Shown: positions 3,068-36,955 of the stretch, in pieces | How positions within the stretch are numbered: the stretch's first letter is position 1 | How the letters are laid out: every line of letters begins with the position of its first letter | IMG/VR virus record: IMGVR_UViG_2681813166_000002 | Location: 1 to 36,955 of that record | Source of the DNA: a virus | Taxonomy: Duplodnaviria > Heunggongvirae > Uroviricota > Caudoviricetes | DNA: 36,955 nucleotides | Direction: 5' to 3' (one strand) | Translations under genes and position numbers: made by a program | The notes under the pieces: generated by a model | Told to the model about the DNA's origin: nothing | The model's input: the letters and a program-made list of their open reading frames with translations, nothing else | Databases searched by the model: none

Positions 3068-3760
3068 TTATCCATGCTTCCTGTACGTCTGCGGCATGCT
3101 CCCGATGACTTTCCCGAAGATGAACACTCGGTTCATCTCGTCTTTCTCGATCGGGTCCCACGGTGAGTAGCTCTTGTTATCAGAGATAACCAGCAGCTTA
3201 TCCTTCATCATTTGCAGACGTTTTACATGAGCGGTTTCGTCGTAGAGGAACGCATAAATCCCATCGCCGTCGAACGATTTGACGCTGATATCGACGAACA
3301 GCAGGTCACCTGGTTCGATCGTTCCTGACATGCTGTCGCCACGCACGTTAATAATGCGGATGTTTTCTGCTTTGCGGCCATCAAACATGTGACGCGCATC
3401 ATCATGGGAGTACTCAACCGATCGCAAAACTTCAACGAACTCACGGTTAATGACGCCTGGCCCTGCACTTACTTCCATATCAAGAACGTCAATCTTGAAG
3501 TATTTGGAAGAGCAGGTCGCCGGTTTTCCTGGCTGAACGCCATTATCCCTCATAGGGCCTATGCCTGAGGAAAGCCATTCAGTGCGAACCCCAAGTGCAT
3601 TAGCGATTTCGACAATTCTTGTAGATCCGCGTGCATTGCCGCTTGTCAGTCTCCAGATTGTGGGTTGAGCTACACCAGACGCCTTTGCAAGAGCGCCTTG
3701 AGACATTCCAGATTGTTCCATCGCTAGGTTTAAGCGATCAGCAAGAGTTTCTTTTTTCAT
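3068..3760 (-). CDS. cI: CI-type prophage repressor (HTH plus S24 LexA-like peptidase domain)
   Basis: HTH-like N-terminus (QGALAKASGVAQPTIWRL) and C-terminal S24-like segments (GDSMSGTIEPGDLLFVD, VKRL); start set at ATG 3760 (MKKETLADR...); the ORF track extends to a TTG at 3796. Confidence 0.88.
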   Translation of the reverse strand: MKKETLADRLNLAMEQSGMSQGALAKASGVAQPTIWRLTSGNARGSTRIVEIANALGVRTEWLSSGIGPMRDNGVQPGKPATCSSKYFKIDVLDMEVSAGPGVINREFVEVLRSVEYSHDDARHMFDGRKAENIRIINVRGDSMSGTIEPGDLLFVDISVKSFDGDGIYAFLYDETAHVKRLQMMKDKLLVISDNKSYSPWDPIEKDEMNRVFIFGKVIGSMPQTYRKHG

Positions 3761-3870
3761 AAGTTTTAATTTATACGCTTGCGTATCGATGGTCAAAACA
3801 CGTTTTGCTATTGCTATGCTTAATACGCATTGCTATTATTTGTTCATTGCAATACCAATAGGAATTGATA
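3761..3870. promoter_or_regulatory. OR region with divergent pRM (leftward) and pR (rightward) and repeated operator motifs
   Basis: pR: TTGCTA (3811-3816), 17-bp spacer, TATTAT (3834-3839). pRM on minus strand: TTGACC (3791-3796) and TATAAA (3770-3775). Repeated TTGCTATTGCTAT and CATTGCTATTAT motifs; ATTGCAAT palindrome. Confidence 0.55.
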
Positions 3871-5684: not shown

Positions 5685-6382
5685 AAAACATCGCCGCACA
5701 GATGGTTAACTTTGACCGTGAGCAGATGCGCCGGATCGCCAACAACATGCCGGAACAGTACGACGAAAAGCCGCAGGTACAGCAGGTAGCGCAGATCATC
5801 AATGGTGTGTTCAGCCAGTTACTGGCAACTTTCCCTGCGAGCCTGGCTAACCGGGATCAGAACGAACTGAACGAAATCCGCCGCCAGTGGGTTCTGGCTT
5901 TCCGGGAAAACGGGATCACCACAATGGAACAGGTTAACGCAGGAATGCGCGTAGCCCGTCGGCAGAATCGACCATTCCTGCCATCACCCGGGCAGTTTGT
6001 TGCCTGGTGCCGGGAAGAAGCATCCGTTACCGCCGGGCTGCCAAACGCCAGCGAGCTGGTTGATATGGTTTACGAGTATTGCCGGAAGCGTGGCCTGTAT
6101 CCGGACGCAGAGTCTTATCCATGGAAATCAAACGCGCACTACTGGCTGGTTACCAACCTGTACCAGAACATGCGGGCCAATGCGCTTACTGATGCGGAAT
6201 TACGGCGCAAGGCTGCCGATGAACTGTCCTGTATGACCGCGCGAATTAACCGTGGTGAGGCGATACCTGAACCAGTAAAACAGCTTCCTGTCATGGGCGG
6301 TAGACCTTTAAATCGTGCACAGGCTTTGGCGAAGATCGCAGAAATCAAAGCTAAGTTCGGACTGAAAGGAGCAAGTGTATGA
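5681..6382 (+). CDS. P: Replication protein P (DnaB helicase loader)
   Basis: 233-aa ORF MKNIAAQMVNFDREQMRRIANNMPEQYDEKPQ... matches my recollection of lambda P. Confidence 0.95.
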   Translation: MKNIAAQMVNFDREQMRRIANNMPEQYDEKPQVQQVAQIINGVFSQLLATFPASLANRDQNELNEIRRQWVLAFRENGITTMEQVNAGMRVARRQNRPFLPSPGQFVAWCREEASVTAGLPNASELVDMVYEYCRKRGLYPDAESYPWKSNAHYWLVTNLYQNMRANALTDAELRRKAADELSCMTARINRGEAIPEPVKQLPVMGGRPLNRAQALAKIAEIKAKFGLKGASV

Positions 6383-31996: not shown

Positions 31997-32598
31997 TGGA
32001 TAACGCTGTATTAAATAGCGAGTTTATTGCTACAAAGGCGGGGAATATTACCGTCTATAACTATGATGGCGAAACACGGGAATATATTTCCACATCAACT
32101 GAATATCTTGCCGTTGGTGTCGGTATCCCTGCATATTCCTGTTTAGATGCCCCTAGCATACATAAGGCGGGTTATGCTATCTGCCGTTCGATGGATTTAA
32201 ACTCATGGGAATATGTGCCAGACCATCGCAGTGAAATTGTCTATAGCACCGAAACGGGAGATACCAAAGAAATCACAGCTCCGGGTGATTACCCTGAAAA
32301 TACAACCACTATCGCACCGTTAACGCCATACGATAAATGGGATGGTGAGAAATGGGTGACAGATACTGAGGCACAACACGGTGCTGCAGTAGAAGTGGCA
32401 GAAGCACAACGCCAGTCACTGATTGATACAGCAATGGCTTCCATTAGTCTGATTCAGCTGAAATTACAGGCCGGACGGAAGTTGACGCAGGCAGAAACAA
32501 CCCGACTTAGCGCCGTGCTGGATTACATTGACGCGGTGGCGGCAACAGATACCAGCACCGCGCCGGATGTCATCTGGCCTGAACTGCCGGAGGTGTAG
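31996..32598 (+). CDS. Tail fibre assembly protein (U-like), expressed orientation
   Basis: 200-aa ORF directly after the fibre gene with ATG overlap. Confidence 0.75.
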   Translation: MDNAVLNSEFIATKAGNITVYNYDGETREYISTSTEYLAVGVGIPAYSCLDAPSIHKAGYAICRSMDLNSWEYVPDHRSEIVYSTETGDTKEITAPGDYPENTTTIAPLTPYDKWDGEKWVTDTEAQHGAAVEVAEAQRQSLIDTAMASISLIQLKLQAGRKLTQAETTRLSAVLDYIDAVAATDTSTAPDVIWPELPEV

Positions 32599-33007
32599 GC
32601 CATTCAATATCTGGCGCACCGGTAGTATCGACTAGCTCCAGTGCGTCCAGATAATCCAGCCACGAATTATATTGCGCCAGTTCCTCGCCTTTCAGACGAC
32701 CAATAGCGGCTTTACCGGGCCATTGTTTACTGTTCATGTATTCGTTGGCCTGATTAAGCAATAATTGCCTTTCTGATTCTGCCTGTTGAATAAGTTCTTC
32801 ATGTGATGGTGGAGGTATTAGTGCCCATGTGGGTAATCCATTTTTTCCTGCAACACGAATTTTGTCATCTGGAGGCGTATTGATTGCAAATTCATTATAA
32901 ACATCATCACTGACAGCCAGAGCATCATCTGGCCATGAATTTGCATTAATGTAATCATCCTTAAGTGCAGGATTCACAAAAATGTTTAAAGATGGACTAT
33001 AAAACAT
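32570..33007 (-). CDS. Alternative tail fibre assembly protein (U'-like), opposite orientation
   Basis: 145-aa minus-strand ORF, convergent with U and sharing the C-terminal motif (APDIEWPTPP versus APDVIWPELP). Confidence 0.7.
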   Translation of the reverse strand: MFYSPSLNIFVNPALKDDYINANSWPDDALAVSDDVYNEFAINTPPDDKIRVAGKNGLPTWALIPPPSHEELIQQAESERQLLLNQANEYMNSKQWPGKAAIGRLKGEELAQYNSWLDYLDALELVDTTGAPDIEWPTPPAVQAR

Positions 33008-33008
33008 A

Positions 33009-33398
33009 TTACACCCCTATAGCGATATAACGACCTAATACAGCGTTTGCAGCAGTCGCTATGCTTGAAAAACCGCGGAACTGATTTGATGTAATTGCAG
33101 AAGCCGACAGGATTCCTGCGCCTGAAGGTGTATGCCCCACATGACTAACTATCATTCCATAACATGCTGACGGAAAGGCAAAAGGAAAATCGTTAAGATA
33201 TCCGGCATCTTCACCACCAGACCCACCAAATCTCGCCTGCCCCCACTGAATAATCAGTGTTCTCCGGGAACCTGAAATAATTAACGGGATCGTTACATAC
33301 CCATTCAGGCCAATGACACCCGATGCAGTGCCAGCCAGAGATAATTCTCCCAAACCAACGTTTATGAAAATGTAGAAATAACGAGCAAATGGCATCAT
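33009..33398 (-). CDS. Alternative tail-fibre C-terminal segment (Sv'-like); no promoter or start of its own in this orientation
   Basis: Minus-strand ORF contains the right crossover site in frame (…NVGLGELSLAG… versus …[11 protein letters not shown]… in the expressed fibre). Confidence 0.65.
   Translation of the reverse strand: MMPFARYFYIFINVGLGELSLAGTASGVIGLNGYVTIPLIISGSRRTLIIQWGQARFGGSGGEDAGYLNDFPFAFPSACYGMIVSHVGHTPSGAGILSASAITSNQFRGFSSIATAANAVLGRYIAIGV
33345..33370. promoter_or_regulatory. Right crossover site of the invertible segment, partly degenerate
   Basis: TTCTCCCAAACC-AA-CGTTTATGAAAA; its left arm is identical to the reverse complement of the left site's right arm; the outer arm is degenerate. 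Confidence 0.5.
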
Positions 33399-33424
33399 TC
33401 CTGCTTTTGTCAGGGAGATCCACC

Positions 33425-33515
33425 ATGCTTATTGGCTACGTACGCGTATCAACAAATGACCAGAACACCGCTCTGCAACGTAATTCGTTGAACTGTGCAG
33501 AATGTGAGTTGATTT
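33425..33515 (+). pseudogene. Truncated Gin/Hin/Pin-family serine DNA invertase (first ~30 codons only)
   Basis: MLIGYVRVSTNDQNTALQRNSLNCAECELI matches the invertase N-terminus including the catalytic serine region, then diverges into AT-rich sequence with an early stop. Confidence 0.8.
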
Positions 33516-33699
33516 TGAAGATAAAATCAGTGGCACAAAGTTCAATAAAAATATACCTGACACATTATACGAAGAAGATTTTATGGTTTTTTCTGTTGAT
33601 TTTTTAACATGGCTGCATGGATACAGATATGACGAAGGTAATGTAGAGTAGTAAGAACATAAATAGGCTGACAAAAGTTCAGCCTACAGTCTTTTCATC

Positions 33700-34584
33700 T
33701 TATCTTACAGCTGGTGTTTGAGGTGGCTTCGTTTTCGTTTTTTTCACGCCCTTGTTTTTTACTATTTCCAGTGCCCTTTTCTGAAGGTCTACTCCTGATG
33801 GATAGAGCACGTTGAGAATGTGCTCAGTCAGTCGGTACGCATCAAACAGATCACTTTGAGTTAAACCTGATGCTGCGTGACTCCCTTCATTACCTAACCA
33901 CTTAACAGCAAATAAAAGTCCATCTAACTTTCCAAATGTTTTTTTTCTATGTGCAGCTATGGTAATTCGTTCATGAAGAGACATGAGGCACCGCTCGCGC
34001 TTGGACTTACCCTTCCGCTTAATTAATTTGTATTTTGGTATATTGTATTCAGATAAAAGATTCTCTATTGCCATTCTAACCTTGTTTGCTGCTGAGCTTG
34101 GCGAAAGTAGTGTCAGTGAAAATGCTTCTTGCAAATTCTCATATACTTCAGATGGACATGTTGTGGGGATATCTATGTACTGTAGCGGAGGGATAAATAC
34201 TTTGGGGATGTAATAGCTAAAGTACTCCTGTATCTGTTCATCTCGATCATTTACAGTAATATCCATCTCAACATAACCAGTGCCTGAGCAGACGACAACT
34301 TCCTCGCATTCATGATTTTCGCATACCAGAACCGCAGTAAAAACCTCTTTAATCAGTTCTGTATCGGAGCCGAGAATCTCAATAAGATTATGTGATTCAC
34401 TAGTTACCTTTGCATAAAATTTTTCTTTATTTAATTTCAAACTGCTTCTTCCGCAACTTGGGCACGGGTATGTCACGTAGTCATTTACTTTGAAAGGTTT
34501 ACCAATTGAAAACTTATCCATTTTTCTCTCGTTAATTTCTCTATGAATGGTTGCTACTGAGTTTACCAACACTGTGTTTTGCAT
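33700..34584 (-). CDS. Hypothetical 294-aa protein: N-terminal zinc ribbon plus C-terminal helical domain with an R-x5-H motif
   Basis: AT-rich ORF; CPSCGR...CENHECEE cysteine cluster; C-terminal ERITIAAHRKK and KWLGNEGSHAAS. Confidence 0.7.
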   Translation of the reverse strand: MQNTVLVNSVATIHREINERKMDKFSIGKPFKVNDYVTYPCPSCGRSSLKLNKEKFYAKVTSESHNLIEILGSDTELIKEVFTAVLVCENHECEEVVVCSGTGYVEMDITVNDRDEQIQEYFSYYIPKVFIPPLQYIDIPTTCPSEVYENLQEAFSLTLLSPSSAANKVRMAIENLLSEYNIPKYKLIKRKGKSKRERCLMSLHERITIAAHRKKTFGKLDGLLFAVKWLGNEGSHAASGLTQSDLFDAYRLTEHILNVLYPSGVDLQKRALEIVKNKGVKKTKTKPPQTPAVR

Positions 34585-34807
34585 GCAATTTGCATGGAGT
34601 AGAATAAAAAAATCGGAAGTTGTCCGCTATCTCACAAATTTCCGCAAGCAATAACATCGCTAGCTTTAATACTTTAGCTCTCTCGATTTCTTGTTAATAG
34701 GAGTATGGGATTAATAATCCATACTCCTCGTTTTAAGGCAGCTAATAGACGCCTTTTGATGGGGTTAATAATATCATAAAAGAATTTAAAAATAACTTCA
34801 TTGTCTA

Positions 34808-35248
34808 TTAGTAACTAATGGTTATCGTAAACATAAATGTAGTTAGTTGACAAAAACCTACGACTGATAACATTATTTTTATCCAGAAAAAAAATAAGGC
34901 GGGGTAATTTATACAATTTGGTGGTTCTTTTAAATTATGTGTTTTTTTATCAAGTCCATTTTCCTCAAGATATTTTTCTCTTCTACGACCAAGCATTCCC
35001 CAAATAATAGTGGTTGCAGCATATTGCAGAAAATCCATTATTAAAGACATAACCAAGAACACTAATGACCAATATAGTGTATTGGGAAATAATAGAATTG
35101 TCTCAGACGAAGATCCTACTGAACTATTACTTATACTTCCCTTGAATAACCATATCAATGCAATCCCACCTAGACATGATTGCCTGTTAATATTTGATAG
35201 TGAACCGCTCGCATCATAGTATGCTTGCTGTATTTTATCTAAAAGCAT
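34808..35248 (-). CDS. Hypothetical integral membrane protein (146 aa)
   Basis: Several hydrophobic helices; start overlaps the stop of the upstream small gene. Confidence 0.6.
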   Translation of the reverse strand: MLLDKIQQAYYDASGSLSNINRQSCLGGIALIWLFKGSISNSSVGSSSETILLFPNTLYWSLVFLVMSLIMDFLQYAATTIIWGMLGRRREKYLEENGLDKKTHNLKEPPNCINYPALFFFWIKIMLSVVGFCQLTTFMFTITISY

Positions 35249-35535
35249 TACAGTACCTTCTTAATATTTGCACGTTTAGGCCCTGTACTGGTAGTCATTT
35301 TAGGCACATTTTCGGGGATGAGAATATTTTCGCTTGAAATTATTGCCCAGTTGCCTTTTTTTATTTGTCTGGTATTTAAATATGCTCGCCCATTTTTTAT
35401 AGTAATAAACCTTGAGTTTATAGAAACTCTTCTCGTCCTGTCAGGATTATCTTTTTTGGCTAATGTAATGCTGACTCTGGTAATCTTTGGATTTGATATA
35501 TGCATATGTACACGTAAGCCACGACTTTTTTTCAT
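35248..35535 (-). CDS. Hypothetical small basic protein (95 aa), first gene of a two-gene operon
   Basis: GAGGGG RBS 6 nt upstream of ATG (MKKSRGLRVHMHISNPK...); the track ORF extends further upstream without an RBS. Confidence 0.5.
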   Translation of the reverse strand: MKKSRGLRVHMHISNPKITRVSITLAKKDNPDRTRRVSINSRFITIKNGRAYLNTRQIKKGNWAIISSENILIPENVPKMTTSTGPKRANIKKVL

Positions 35536-36208
35536 TATCCCCTCACTGATACTAGCTTTAACACTGTGATACAATAACTTATATTTATGAATAAAATCAA
35601 TTGATAAATTGTAGCATTTCGGTGGCATGGAAGTTACTGTCACTACAAGCAGGTAACAACACACTCTCCTTGTTTATAACAGTAACGCACTTCAATCATG
35701 TCAAATATATGGCGGTCGAGAAATAAAGTGGCCTATAGCTATTCACTCGGGAACTGCGGCTCCTTTGCGTATCCTTTTTTGTCTCTTCACCTTCTGGTCG
35801 GTGTCTTGCTGAGATTTATAACTTCCTGTTTTTGTTGGTGTTGTCCTTACACCCTCCAATCATGATTGGCTGGCGGTAGTTGAACCCGCAGACACGTCGT
35901 ATGCAAGGACTTGCTGCGGCTGGATGGTGGACTTTCGATAGTGCGAGTATTGAATGATTTCCATCTATTATAGATTTTACCGTATTTCGGCATGAATGAA
36001 ATTGAATATCCTCCCACCGACCCTCCATGACTTTACACCACTGTCTCTGGGGCTGCTATGTGCCAAAAGCTGACATCTTCATTTTCGATGAATTTGTCAG
36101 CTACATATTATGACGCTTTCATATTTTGATGCTTTTCCCTAAATAATACTAACCCAATTCTCATCTATTTCGCTATCAATCTTAATCGTATTTAATAACT
36201 TGCAGTCA

Positions 36209-36955
36209 CTATCTATATAGCCTTTTTGCTAATGGTTCTATGGATGATGAATAGCAAAACTCTCTATTCATATTGTCTATCAATTCAAAAACTTGATCTT
36301 CAACCTCATAGTAATCATTTCTAGGCAATCGAGGATGGATTATTCCAAAATTTCGAAGCAAATTTGTGATGTTATTTTGATGTCTTACGTAAGAGAAAGA
36401 ACCTGATTTGGCTAGTGAACATGCAGTATTTGAGTCACTTATAGCACTGTTTAATTTTACAATCAGATTGCAGTAGTCTTGAGATATGGATGTAGAGCCA
36501 GAACGAGACTTATTAAAAATGATGTTATACCATTTGAATATATCAAATGAAGATGCGGATAGACGATCTCTTTTATTTATTTCGTATGATAAGTACTCTT
36601 GAAATATCTTAAAGTGTGATATATGGTTGCCAAGAGCTGACACGCTGACACTATTAGTATACCCAAGCAACGCAACAACTATTCCACCTATGCTAGCGAC
36701 TAACCCCAACAATATGAAAGTTGCTTGCAATATTAATATTGATTGTGAGTAACCTTTAGTAAAATTTGAAATGCAGGTATTATTGAAACAAAAACTCCGA
36801 TTAAAAAAACCTTCTTGCATTCCAGTTAAAATAAATGAAGTTACAAAAAGCATTATGCCTAGTGTAACAATAGTAATCAAACATAGAAGCAAGATTCTAA
36901 GAGAGTGTGAGTCTATTTTTTTTAGAAGGATATAACTTTTAAAAAAGTTTTTCAT
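36209..36955 (-). CDS. Hypothetical protein with two N-terminal TM helices and a soluble C-terminal domain (248 aa; start at window edge)
   Basis: AT-rich ORF; hydrophobic segments ILLLCLITIVTLGIMLFVTSFIL and ILILQATFILLGLVASIGGIVVALLGY; the ATG is the last three bases of the window, so the true start could lie beyond. Confidence 0.55.
   Translation of the reverse strand: MKNFFKSYILLKKIDSHSLRILLLCLITIVTLGIMLFVTSFILTGMQEGFFNRSFCFNNTCISNFTKGYSQSILILQATFILLGLVASIGGIVVALLGYTNSVSVSALGNHISHFKIFQEYLSYEINKRDRLSASSFDIFKWYNIIFNKSRSGSTSISQDYCNLIVKLNSAISDSNTACSLAKSGSFSYVRHQNNITNLLRNFGIIHPRLPRNDYYEVEDQVFELIDNMNREFCYSSSIEPLAKRLYR

Follow-up and report, generated by a model that had tools for sequence, protein, structure and literature searches.

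The 36,955-nucleotide (nt) sequence analysed here, the IMG/VR record IMGVR_UViG_2681813166_000002 and hereafter the window, represents most of the length of an Escherichia coli prophage of the SfI/SfII-like myovirus type, whose tail-end cargo slot carries two small, adjacent genes, here termed A and B (Table 1). Profile searches and gene order place A-B in a large family of two-gene cassettes that has neither a name nor an earlier description. The pair is a small soluble-plus-membrane module borne by prophages and genomic islands, and the main value of the finding lies in the pattern observed at the level of the family.

As the initial annotation of this locus had claimed, the product of gene A is a markedly basic protein of 95 residues (isoelectric point, pI, of 11.86, with 22 lysine and arginine against 4 aspartate and glutamate residues), and its gene is preceded by its own ribosome-binding site. 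The further description of A as likely beta-rich is borne out in part: a low-confidence AlphaFold2 (AF2) model displays five beta strands spanning residues 20-67, with basic N- and C-terminal tails that are disordered, but the feature conserved across the family is not the beta-rich body but a motif of five to six residues close to the C-terminus, the protein of the window ending in ...TTSTGPKRANIKKVL. The start codon of the 146-residue B does overlap the stop codon of A, and three hydrophobic segments, at approximately residues 24-36, 56-84 and 116-140 as judged from AF2 secondary structure and hydropathy, agree with the multi-pass membrane protein that had been described. The AF2 models were obtained from shallow alignments, with a predicted local distance difference test (pLDDT) score of 54 for B and 51 for A, and are informative for secondary structure only. 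In RefSeq, the two coding sequences of E. coli EC6563 (288 and 441 nt) are listed as hypothetical proteins, A as WP_125077600 and B as WP_063102172. Pairwise ratios of nonsynonymous to synonymous substitution (dN/dS) among the copies from E. coli, Serratia, Klebsiella and Enterobacter range from 0.26 to 0.37 for A and from 0.12 to 0.25 for B, and because of these values we regard both as real coding genes evolving under purifying selection.

The structural region of the prophage is 97% identical to the SfI/SfII phages across approximately 85% of its length. In SfII, the slot past the tail-fibre assembly genes houses the lysogenic-conversion genes oac, gtrII, gtrB and gtrA, which lie on the opposite strand and adjoin int. 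The equivalent slot in the window comes after a truncated Pin/Gin invertase and contains a minus-strand cargo made up of a gene for a DUF4145-domain protein, then B, then A, in accord with the earlier assignment of the pair to prophage cargo. The local G+C content at A-B is 35-37%, as against approximately 50-58% across most of the prophage. To the right of A-B are a 334-nt piece and then a retron Ec48 system, the reverse transcriptase of which lies just past the window end in EC6563, a genome that is 99.6% identical to window positions 33400-36955. The retron occupies a second variable slot, by yagP'/paoD, and in both slots other E. coli strains carry other cargo. The serotype-conversion slot of the SfI/SfII phage group is thus able to hold the A-B cassette in place of the gtr genes.

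Table 1. Features of the A-B locus, of the rest of the window and of related contigs (window numbering unless a contig is named)
Feature	Position	Strand	Remarks
Gene A	35535-35248	minus	ATG at 35535, stop 35250-35248; 95 aa
Shine-Dalgarno sequence of A, GAGGGG	35544-35539	minus	3 nt ahead of the ATG; read from the sequence
Motif codons of A, T81-T-S-T-G-P-K-R88	35272..35295	minus	followed by a 7-residue basic tail, ANIKKVL
Gene B	35248-34808	minus	ATG at 35248, stop 34810-34808; 146 aa
Shine-Dalgarno sequence of B, GAAGG	35260-35256	minus	located within A
Stop/start overlap TAATG, A stop plus B start	35250-35246	minus	translational-coupling junction; read from the sequence
Candidate A-B promoter, TTGACA-17 nt-TGTTAT	35676..35704	minus	~140 nt upstream of A; weak, by eye
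9-bp inverted repeat (GGAGTATGG ... CCATACTCC)	34700..34727		perfect; 10-nt AT loop; 80 nt downstream of B, before the DUF4145 gene
DUF4145-domain protein gene	33700-34584	minus	directly downstream of B; N-terminal Cys-rich segment
Terminator-like site	33687-33663	minus	past the DUF4145 gene
Retron Ec48-family two-transmembrane (2TM) effector	36209-36955	minus	NF038235 E=7e-68; PADLOC 2TM_IV E=1.9e-82
Unannotated 334-nt piece	35743-36076
Pair of open reading frames, 132 and 130 aa	2181-2992	minus	37% G+C patch
cI-like repressor gene	3068-3796		S24 and helix-turn-helix domains
Open reading frame of 472 aa	7037-8455	minus	36.6% G+C patch
Pin/Gin-type invertase remnant	~33389-33607	plus	truncated and frameshifted (MLIGYVRVSTNDQ...)
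Tail-fibre/assembly gene segments	32570-33398		oppositely oriented; adjoin the invertase remnant
Uncalled A-type frames, contigs L105-L110	~5819-6004		missed by gene callers or annotators
Uncalled A-type frame, contig L016	13957-14223		missed by gene callers or annotators
Uncalled A-type frames, contigs L114 and L116	upstream of 7001		missed by gene callers or annotators
Split A of Enterobacter bugandensis, contig L015	7673-8001		B intact

The B family and the motif of A

In keeping with the initial annotation, which had found neither protein recognisable, A and B retrieved no match from Pfam, NCBIfam, PHROGs or PADLOC, nor from PDB sequence profiles, and homology to characterised transporters or regulators, which that annotation had named as an outcome that would speak against its reading, did not emerge. 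Word-indexed searches recovered only a handful of close homologues, with 62-92% identity, from Yersinia, Serratia, Klebsiella and Enterobacter (for A, 75-81% in the first three genera and 62% in Enterobacter); in these, A precedes B every time and the 1-nt overlap is kept. The profile and structure searches that had been recommended met with divided success. An exhaustive HMMER search with a B profile against 1.84 billion cluster representatives (50% identity clusters) revealed a family of 1,127 proteins at E<=1e-3, 332 of them at E<=1e-10 and nearly all of them 125-145 residues long, but no named family emerged, and Foldseek searches with the A model returned noise only (best E = 1.7). The members that carry a name are all listed as hypothetical proteins, without any Pfam domain, and come from Stenotrophomonas, Acinetobacter, Marinobacter, Vibrio, Oxalobacter, Rahnella, Erwinia, Pantoea and Gracilimonas; the family as a whole extends over Proteobacteria, reaches at least one genome of Balneolales/Bacteroidota type, and turns up very often in metagenomes from soil, sediment and gut.

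When 80 diverse members that share 27-47% identity with the B of the window are aligned to it as the reference row, two residues are invariant, W33 and K124, and a further set is conserved in at least 90% of the sequences (Y10, R22, G28, A30, L58, L69, D72, Y76, W83 and N114). The B of the window possesses every one of these conserved residues as well as the length and the three helices typical of the family. The predicted order of elements is an amphipathic N-terminal helix, helix 1, a short acidic outside loop, a long helix 2 with D72, Q75 and Y76 in its predicted mid-membrane portion, a charged, 26-residue loop predicted to be cytoplasmic, and helix 3, within which K124 is situated. Hydropathy and charge point to an orientation with the N-terminus in the cytoplasm and the C-terminus outside.

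We then considered the region immediately upstream of B in 88 loci drawn from viral, metagenomic and genomic collections. The pattern described below was first noticed in the Vibrio PM2-like prophage PQ189331, where an unannotated 88-residue open reading frame (ORF) ending in ...TRSGGPKSPKVVKL lies directly upstream of a B homologue 27% identical to that of the window. A small, very basic, same-strand ORF precedes B in approximately 75-90% of the 88 loci, and in 68 of them a motif of the strict form [S/T/N/D/G]-[S/G]-[T/G]-G-P-[K/R] is found near the end of that ORF, with near variants such as SPGPGR, STGAR and SGGAK in several further loci. The motif, which we define for the family as [S/T/N]-[S/G]-[T/G]-G-P-[K/R], is invariant among the close homologues of A, is usually positioned at the extreme C-terminus, and was present in an ORF upstream of B in every genome context that we inspected by hand. 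Stop-to-start spacing of the two genes ranges from -4 to +14 nt, with overlap in 30 of the 88 loci and a spacing of 0-14 nt in 51. As a control, the core form [T/G/S]-G-P-[K/R] was sought in the last 16 residues of all stop-to-stop ORFs of the sampled loci; it was detected in 76 of 5,629 ORFs, of which approximately 64 adjoin B, leaving a background of approximately 12 among the approximately 5,540 other ORFs (~0.2%).

The third codon positions of the motif threonine, glycine and proline are spread evenly across all four bases in 43 distinct instances (counts of 9/12/12/10 for glycine and 8/11/11/13 for proline); as the wobble positions are free, selection acts on the peptide rather than on an RNA or DNA element. 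AGY codons account for 34 of the 35 motif serines and AGR codons for most of the motif arginines, a codon bias that fits interchange of K with R and of S with N, G and T by single transitions. The motif is N-terminal in two loci (L079 and L084) and occurs in two to four copies in five (L021, L029, L089, L054 and L075), behaving across the sampled sequences as a short linear motif. In a single clear natural fusion of A with B, the 191-residue protein P0142, a lysine-rich region is followed by GSTGPR, 13 further residues and then the B domain.

The remainder of A is of an altogether different character. A proteins have a median length of 69 residues and a median pI of 11.0 (above 10 in 57 of 65), with few hydrophobic residues. 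Among 56 A proteins, Pfam recognises SWIB domains in four (E=4.5e-25), HU/Bac_DNA_binding domains in three (E=1.6e-32), histone H1-like HC2 domains in two, and a GIY-YIG domain and a papain-like peptidase in one each, and the remaining members have low-complexity tails rich in lysine, alanine, proline, glycine and serine; the enterobacterial body, beta-rich in the low-confidence AF2 model, matches no family. Judged from these comparisons, the conserved feature of A is the motif, and the rest of the protein is interchangeable. Several contigs contain an A gene that had not been called (PQ189331, L006/L007, L105-L110, L114 and L116; Table 1), so that the annotated B genes look like orphan membrane proteins.

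That the only conserved part of A is a short peptide encoded close to its 3' end, the rest being hypervariable, and that the codons of this peptide lie 8-30 nt from the start of a translationally coupled B, could also be read as the signature of a regulatory upstream ORF, in which a Gly-Pro peptide would stall the ribosome in the manner of SecM or MifM and thereby control the translation of B. We consider this explanation very unlikely, as the motif may be N-terminal or repeated and is retained in the A-B fusion, several A proteins contain full folded domains, and purifying selection acts along the whole of A in Enterobacterales (dN/dS ~0.3). Moreover, A is hydrophilic and lacks any signal or membrane segment such as known monitoring peptides possess, and folding of the RNA at the A/B junction yielded no stable structure (z = +1.0) that might sequester the Shine-Dalgarno sequence.

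Genomic contexts and neighbouring cargo

In the close relatives, the neighbours of A-B change with the genus. The Serratia pair belongs to an icd-linked prophage, at whose int end it is accompanied by an HNH_2 gene and a 1,083-residue unknown gene; the Klebsiella pair has UmuDC upstream and a 277-residue unknown gene and Mrr_cat downstream; and the Enterobacter pair is preceded by WapI and followed by an AAA_23 three-gene unit. As the neighbours differ by genus, the DUF4145 gene of the window is not an obligate partner and A-B constitutes an autonomous unit. Beyond the close relatives, the 146 neighbouring proteins from approximately 45 diverse loci represent 117 Pfam families, with no family seen more than three times, and we found no third conserved gene. 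Scattered among these neighbours are defence and mobile-element genes (AbiH, caspase, methyltransferases, DRT UG24, PD-Lambda-3_B, mad3, IS66, Mu portal and RepB).

In a lambdoid prophage (L023), a 47%-identical A-B pair comes after a cI-like repressor on the same strand, that is, in the position of rexAB, and in a Vibrio PM2-like prophage the cassette follows an S24 repressor at the prophage end. In Stenotrophomonas and Acinetobacter it is lodged between hsdS and hsdR of type I restriction-modification (RM) operons, within an integrase island and a Tn7-like element. It adjoins TIR_2 and an MmeI-like RM gene in Gracilimonas and ThsB-TIR plus a caspase, with BREX nearby, in Marinobacter; it is followed by AbiGi on an Oxalobacter contig, and in Vibrio fluvialis a P2/CP76-like element carries it at its integrase end. 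A Vibrio plasmid has one copy, in the vicinity of ssb and traD. A-B is sporadic in E. coli (6 of 5,426 complete genomes), and the family is present in 1 of 50,697 isolate phage genomes and 1 of 72,556 plasmids. The A-B cassette is autonomous and is found almost only in the cargo slots of mobile elements and in defence islands.

This distribution bears on the reading of A-B as a holin-like pair with which the prophage would effect or control lysis, which the small, three-helix architecture and holin-like size of B might invite. The pair lies in a cargo slot on the opposite strand, outside the lysis cassette, neither protein matches a holin family, and copies of the family reside inside RM operons; by its location and its near-absence from phage genomes we regard this reading as largely refuted and scarcely credible.

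Scanning genome contigs with patterns derived from the narrow enterobacterial alignment recovered one locus. Separately, a contig of Enterobacter bugandensis contains an A split in two by an apparent frameshift, the result either of pseudogenisation or of a mistake in the assembly.

With regard to transcription in the window, the candidate A-B promoter is a weak one, read from the sequence, and it failed a consensus scan because its second hexamer lacks an A at position 2. The inverted repeat downstream of B may mark the end of the transcription unit; the intrinsic-terminator scan made no call there. Since the sole terminator-like site on this strand comes after the DUF4145 gene, A-B may nonetheless be co-transcribed with that gene, which itself matches Pfam (E=2.4e-10), phrog_1305 (E=9e-23) and, weakly, PADLOC PD-T7-4 (E=0.0036). 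We considered and rejected a three-gene system comprising A, B and the DUF4145 gene, given that the partner changes between genera and that similar DUF4145 genes adjoin the invertase elsewhere; the other E. coli prophages with such invertase-adjacent DUF4145 genes had no detectable match to A-B. The DUF4145 gene is probably a separate cargo gene. A relationship of B to the 2TM effector of the neighbouring retron was likewise rejected: their profiles align with an hhalign probability of 0.3%, and NF038235 and 2TM_IV match the neighbour and not B. A-B is present without the retron in 5 of its 6 E. coli genomes, and other strains have the retron without A-B.

The 334-nt piece between A-B and the retron is found in approximately 4,300 of the 5,426 complete E. 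coli genomes, often in multiple copies, and acts as a divider between the right-end cargo of the prophage and the next variable slot, which is occupied by retron Ec48 here and by an S1 peptidase and IS4 in MIN10. It is possibly a conserved prophage end or att flank; tRNA and Rfam scans of the region, including this piece, returned no match. Elsewhere in the window, two ORFs follow the cI-like repressor gene immediately and in its orientation, a rexAB-like position; they have no Pfam match and only a weak PADLOC match to PbeC (E=0.0026). A further patch of low G+C content contains the 472-residue ORF, with a PADLOC match to HEC-07 (E=1e-9) and no Pfam family, which may be another defence-type moron of the prophage. 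The invertase remnant and the oppositely oriented tail-fibre and assembly gene segments that adjoin it represent a decayed invertible tail-fibre switch.

Proposed function and comparison with known systems

The initial annotation had proposed superinfection exclusion or membrane-depolarising abortive infection for A-B, and both fit the comparative evidence and are plausible. More generally, we propose that A-B is a self-contained conflict or defence module directed against phages or other invading DNA, a proposal to which we give an even chance, this estimate applying mainly to the conflict or defence role as such.

With respect to mechanism we can offer a tentative scheme, of docking and pore formation, which we hold possible at a distinctly lower level of confidence. 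A-B would be a horizontally mobile two-gene cassette expressed from the lysogenic-conversion slot. B would be a small three-helix inner-membrane protein, with its N-terminal amphipathic helix and charged loop directed toward the cytoplasm and with D72 and K124 inside membrane helices, and would act as a membrane effector. A would be a cytoplasmic basic adaptor made beside B through coupled translation, with a body that probably binds nucleic acid, and its conserved S-T-G-P-K/R tail would dock on the cytoplasmic face of B. We infer that the motif is the handle for the contact between A and B because of the strict adjacency of the two genes, their translational coupling, the fusion, the indifference of the motif to its position, and the invariance of the key residues of both A and B across phyla; alternatively, the motif might contact a universally conserved host factor. 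From this arrangement, two routes could be envisaged. In abortive infection, a latent membrane-permeabilising B would be held in check or triggered by A, whereas in exclusion the A-B pair would capture incoming DNA at the membrane. We rank abortive infection as more likely than exclusion at entry, in data that do not separate the two.

Several observations weigh against this interpretation. A clear motif ORF is absent in 10-25% of the loci, and the low pLDDT values of the AF2 models leave how B crosses the membrane, how A folds and any A-B interface as no more than putative. Neither A nor B has homology to any validated defence protein, and PADLOC holds no relevant model for A, B or the 80 diverse B members. 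The E. coli-type A body matches no known DNA-binding domain, and the basic low-complexity tails of other A proteins could bind membranes or RNA, not DNA. Lastly, the enrichment in defence islands was judged on about a dozen hand-inspected contexts and approximately 45 metagenome loci, without a matched genome-wide control.

A compact, autonomous and translationally coupled unit with a small soluble gene first, no conserved third partner and a sporadic, mobile-element-linked distribution might equally bring to mind a toxin-antitoxin (TA) or addiction module, in which B would be a membrane toxin and A its labile neutraliser, and whose main role would be to stabilise the carrier prophage or island rather than to exclude phages. 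We deem this unlikely: in protein TA systems the antitoxin tends to be acidic or to have an autoregulating, DNA-binding ribbon-helix-helix (RHH), helix-turn-helix (HTH) or AbrB fold, whereas A mostly consists of a disordered poly-basic tail, with nucleoid-protein domains swapped in; no TA family in Pfam, NCBIfam or PADLOC matches A or B; and sites inside type I RM operons and by repressors are more typical of defence cargo. Addiction and defence roles for A-B are not mutually exclusive.

A further explanation, less probable again, would make A-B a DNA-membrane tether serving the biology of the element itself, with no killing effector, for instance in DNA anchoring or silencing, modulated induction, entry exclusion of related elements or envelope remodelling. 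The bona fide nucleoid proteins among the A bodies (HU, SWIB and H1-like HC2), the very small size of B and its lack of a recognisable pore or enzyme signature, the lysogenic-conversion slot of the SfII-like prophage and the plasmid copy near ssb and traD would all suit such a role. On the other hand, the family is rare on both plasmids and isolate phages, and the many copies in non-prophage defence islands or RM operons make poor sense for a housekeeping tether.

Returning to A-B as a conflict or defence module, it would, if this is what it is, be a very compact (~730 bp) and widely distributed addition to the anti-phage repertoire. Still more broadly, though we are rather doubtful of so general a statement, A-B could represent a new and widespread class of bacterial immune or conflict module in which interchangeable nucleoid or DNA-binding heads (HU, SWIB, H1-like and others) are wired by one motif to a three-helix membrane protein. 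Were this true, the state of DNA, either the integrity of the cell's own nucleoid or the presence of foreign DNA at the membrane, would be coupled directly to a membrane effector by an unusual logic, that of a universal short linear motif linking swappable DNA-binding heads to a minimal membrane protein. Mutants of the motif and of D72 and K124 would offer a directly testable handle on the coupling between sensing in the cytoplasm and effectors in the membrane. A practical point concerns annotation: where A genes are uncalled, defence discovery that relies on gene neighbourhoods meets only a lone "hypothetical membrane protein", and the A genes being short, of low complexity and often missed by gene callers would explain the absence of the cassette from defence catalogues.

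Among known families and systems, the sole library family with recurrent similarity is Pfam DUF7420, which is itself without known function and which 17 of the 80 B members match weakly over helices 1-2; the best of these score approximately 15 bits against a gathering threshold of 27, and the B of the window has no match. A literature search on the RefSeq proteins of A and B, on DUF7420 and on the motif returned nothing relevant. A GtrA-like conversion protein was considered for the locus and rejected, there being no Pfam match.

On the side of A, a loose parallel is provided by the HU-HIG proteins of Bacteroidetes, in which an HU-type domain bears a short, conserved, glycine-rich C-terminal extension, with partner binding and a conflict context both proposed (PMC5499826). 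HU-HIG genes are without operon partners (PMC5499826), while A proteins are defined by their linkage to B. As to position, the RM-embedded copies of Stenotrophomonas and Acinetobacter occupy the place of a guardian gene between hsdS and hsdR, comparable to prrC within the EcoprrI locus, which sets off abortive infection on inhibition of the RM enzyme (PMC12707154). The likeness to PrrC does not extend to homology, the A-B effector would be a membrane protein and not an anticodon nuclease, and the copy in the window has no RM linkage. The 2TM effector of retron Ec48 resembles B in being a small membrane protein and a presumed defence effector in the same island of the window.

The likeness to lambda RexAB is more extensive, in that both are prophage pairs expressed in the lysogen and composed of a soluble partner and a polytopic membrane protein of ~145 residues, and the A-B pair of the lambdoid prophage takes up the rexAB position past its cI-like repressor. 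In the window, however, A-B is in the tail-end cargo slot, approximately 31 kb away from the cI-like gene. RexA, at 279 residues, is also far longer than A; B has three helices, as against four; the STGP[K/R] motif is not known from Rex; and Pfam searches showed no similarity to RexA or RexB, at E<=1 for A and B or at E<=0.1 for the 80 B members. Kiwa, a two-gene defence system in which the membrane protein KwaA is coupled to the DNA-binding partner KwaB, resembles A-B in how it might work only. A and B are far smaller, the DNA-binding part of A would be interchangeable and joined through a short linear motif, and the KwaA and KwaB models of PADLOC match neither A, B nor the 80 B members. Taken together, A-B, while a member of neither, appears by analogy to be closest in works-like terms to lambda RexAB and, in its coupling of a membrane protein to a probable DNA-binding partner, to Kiwa.

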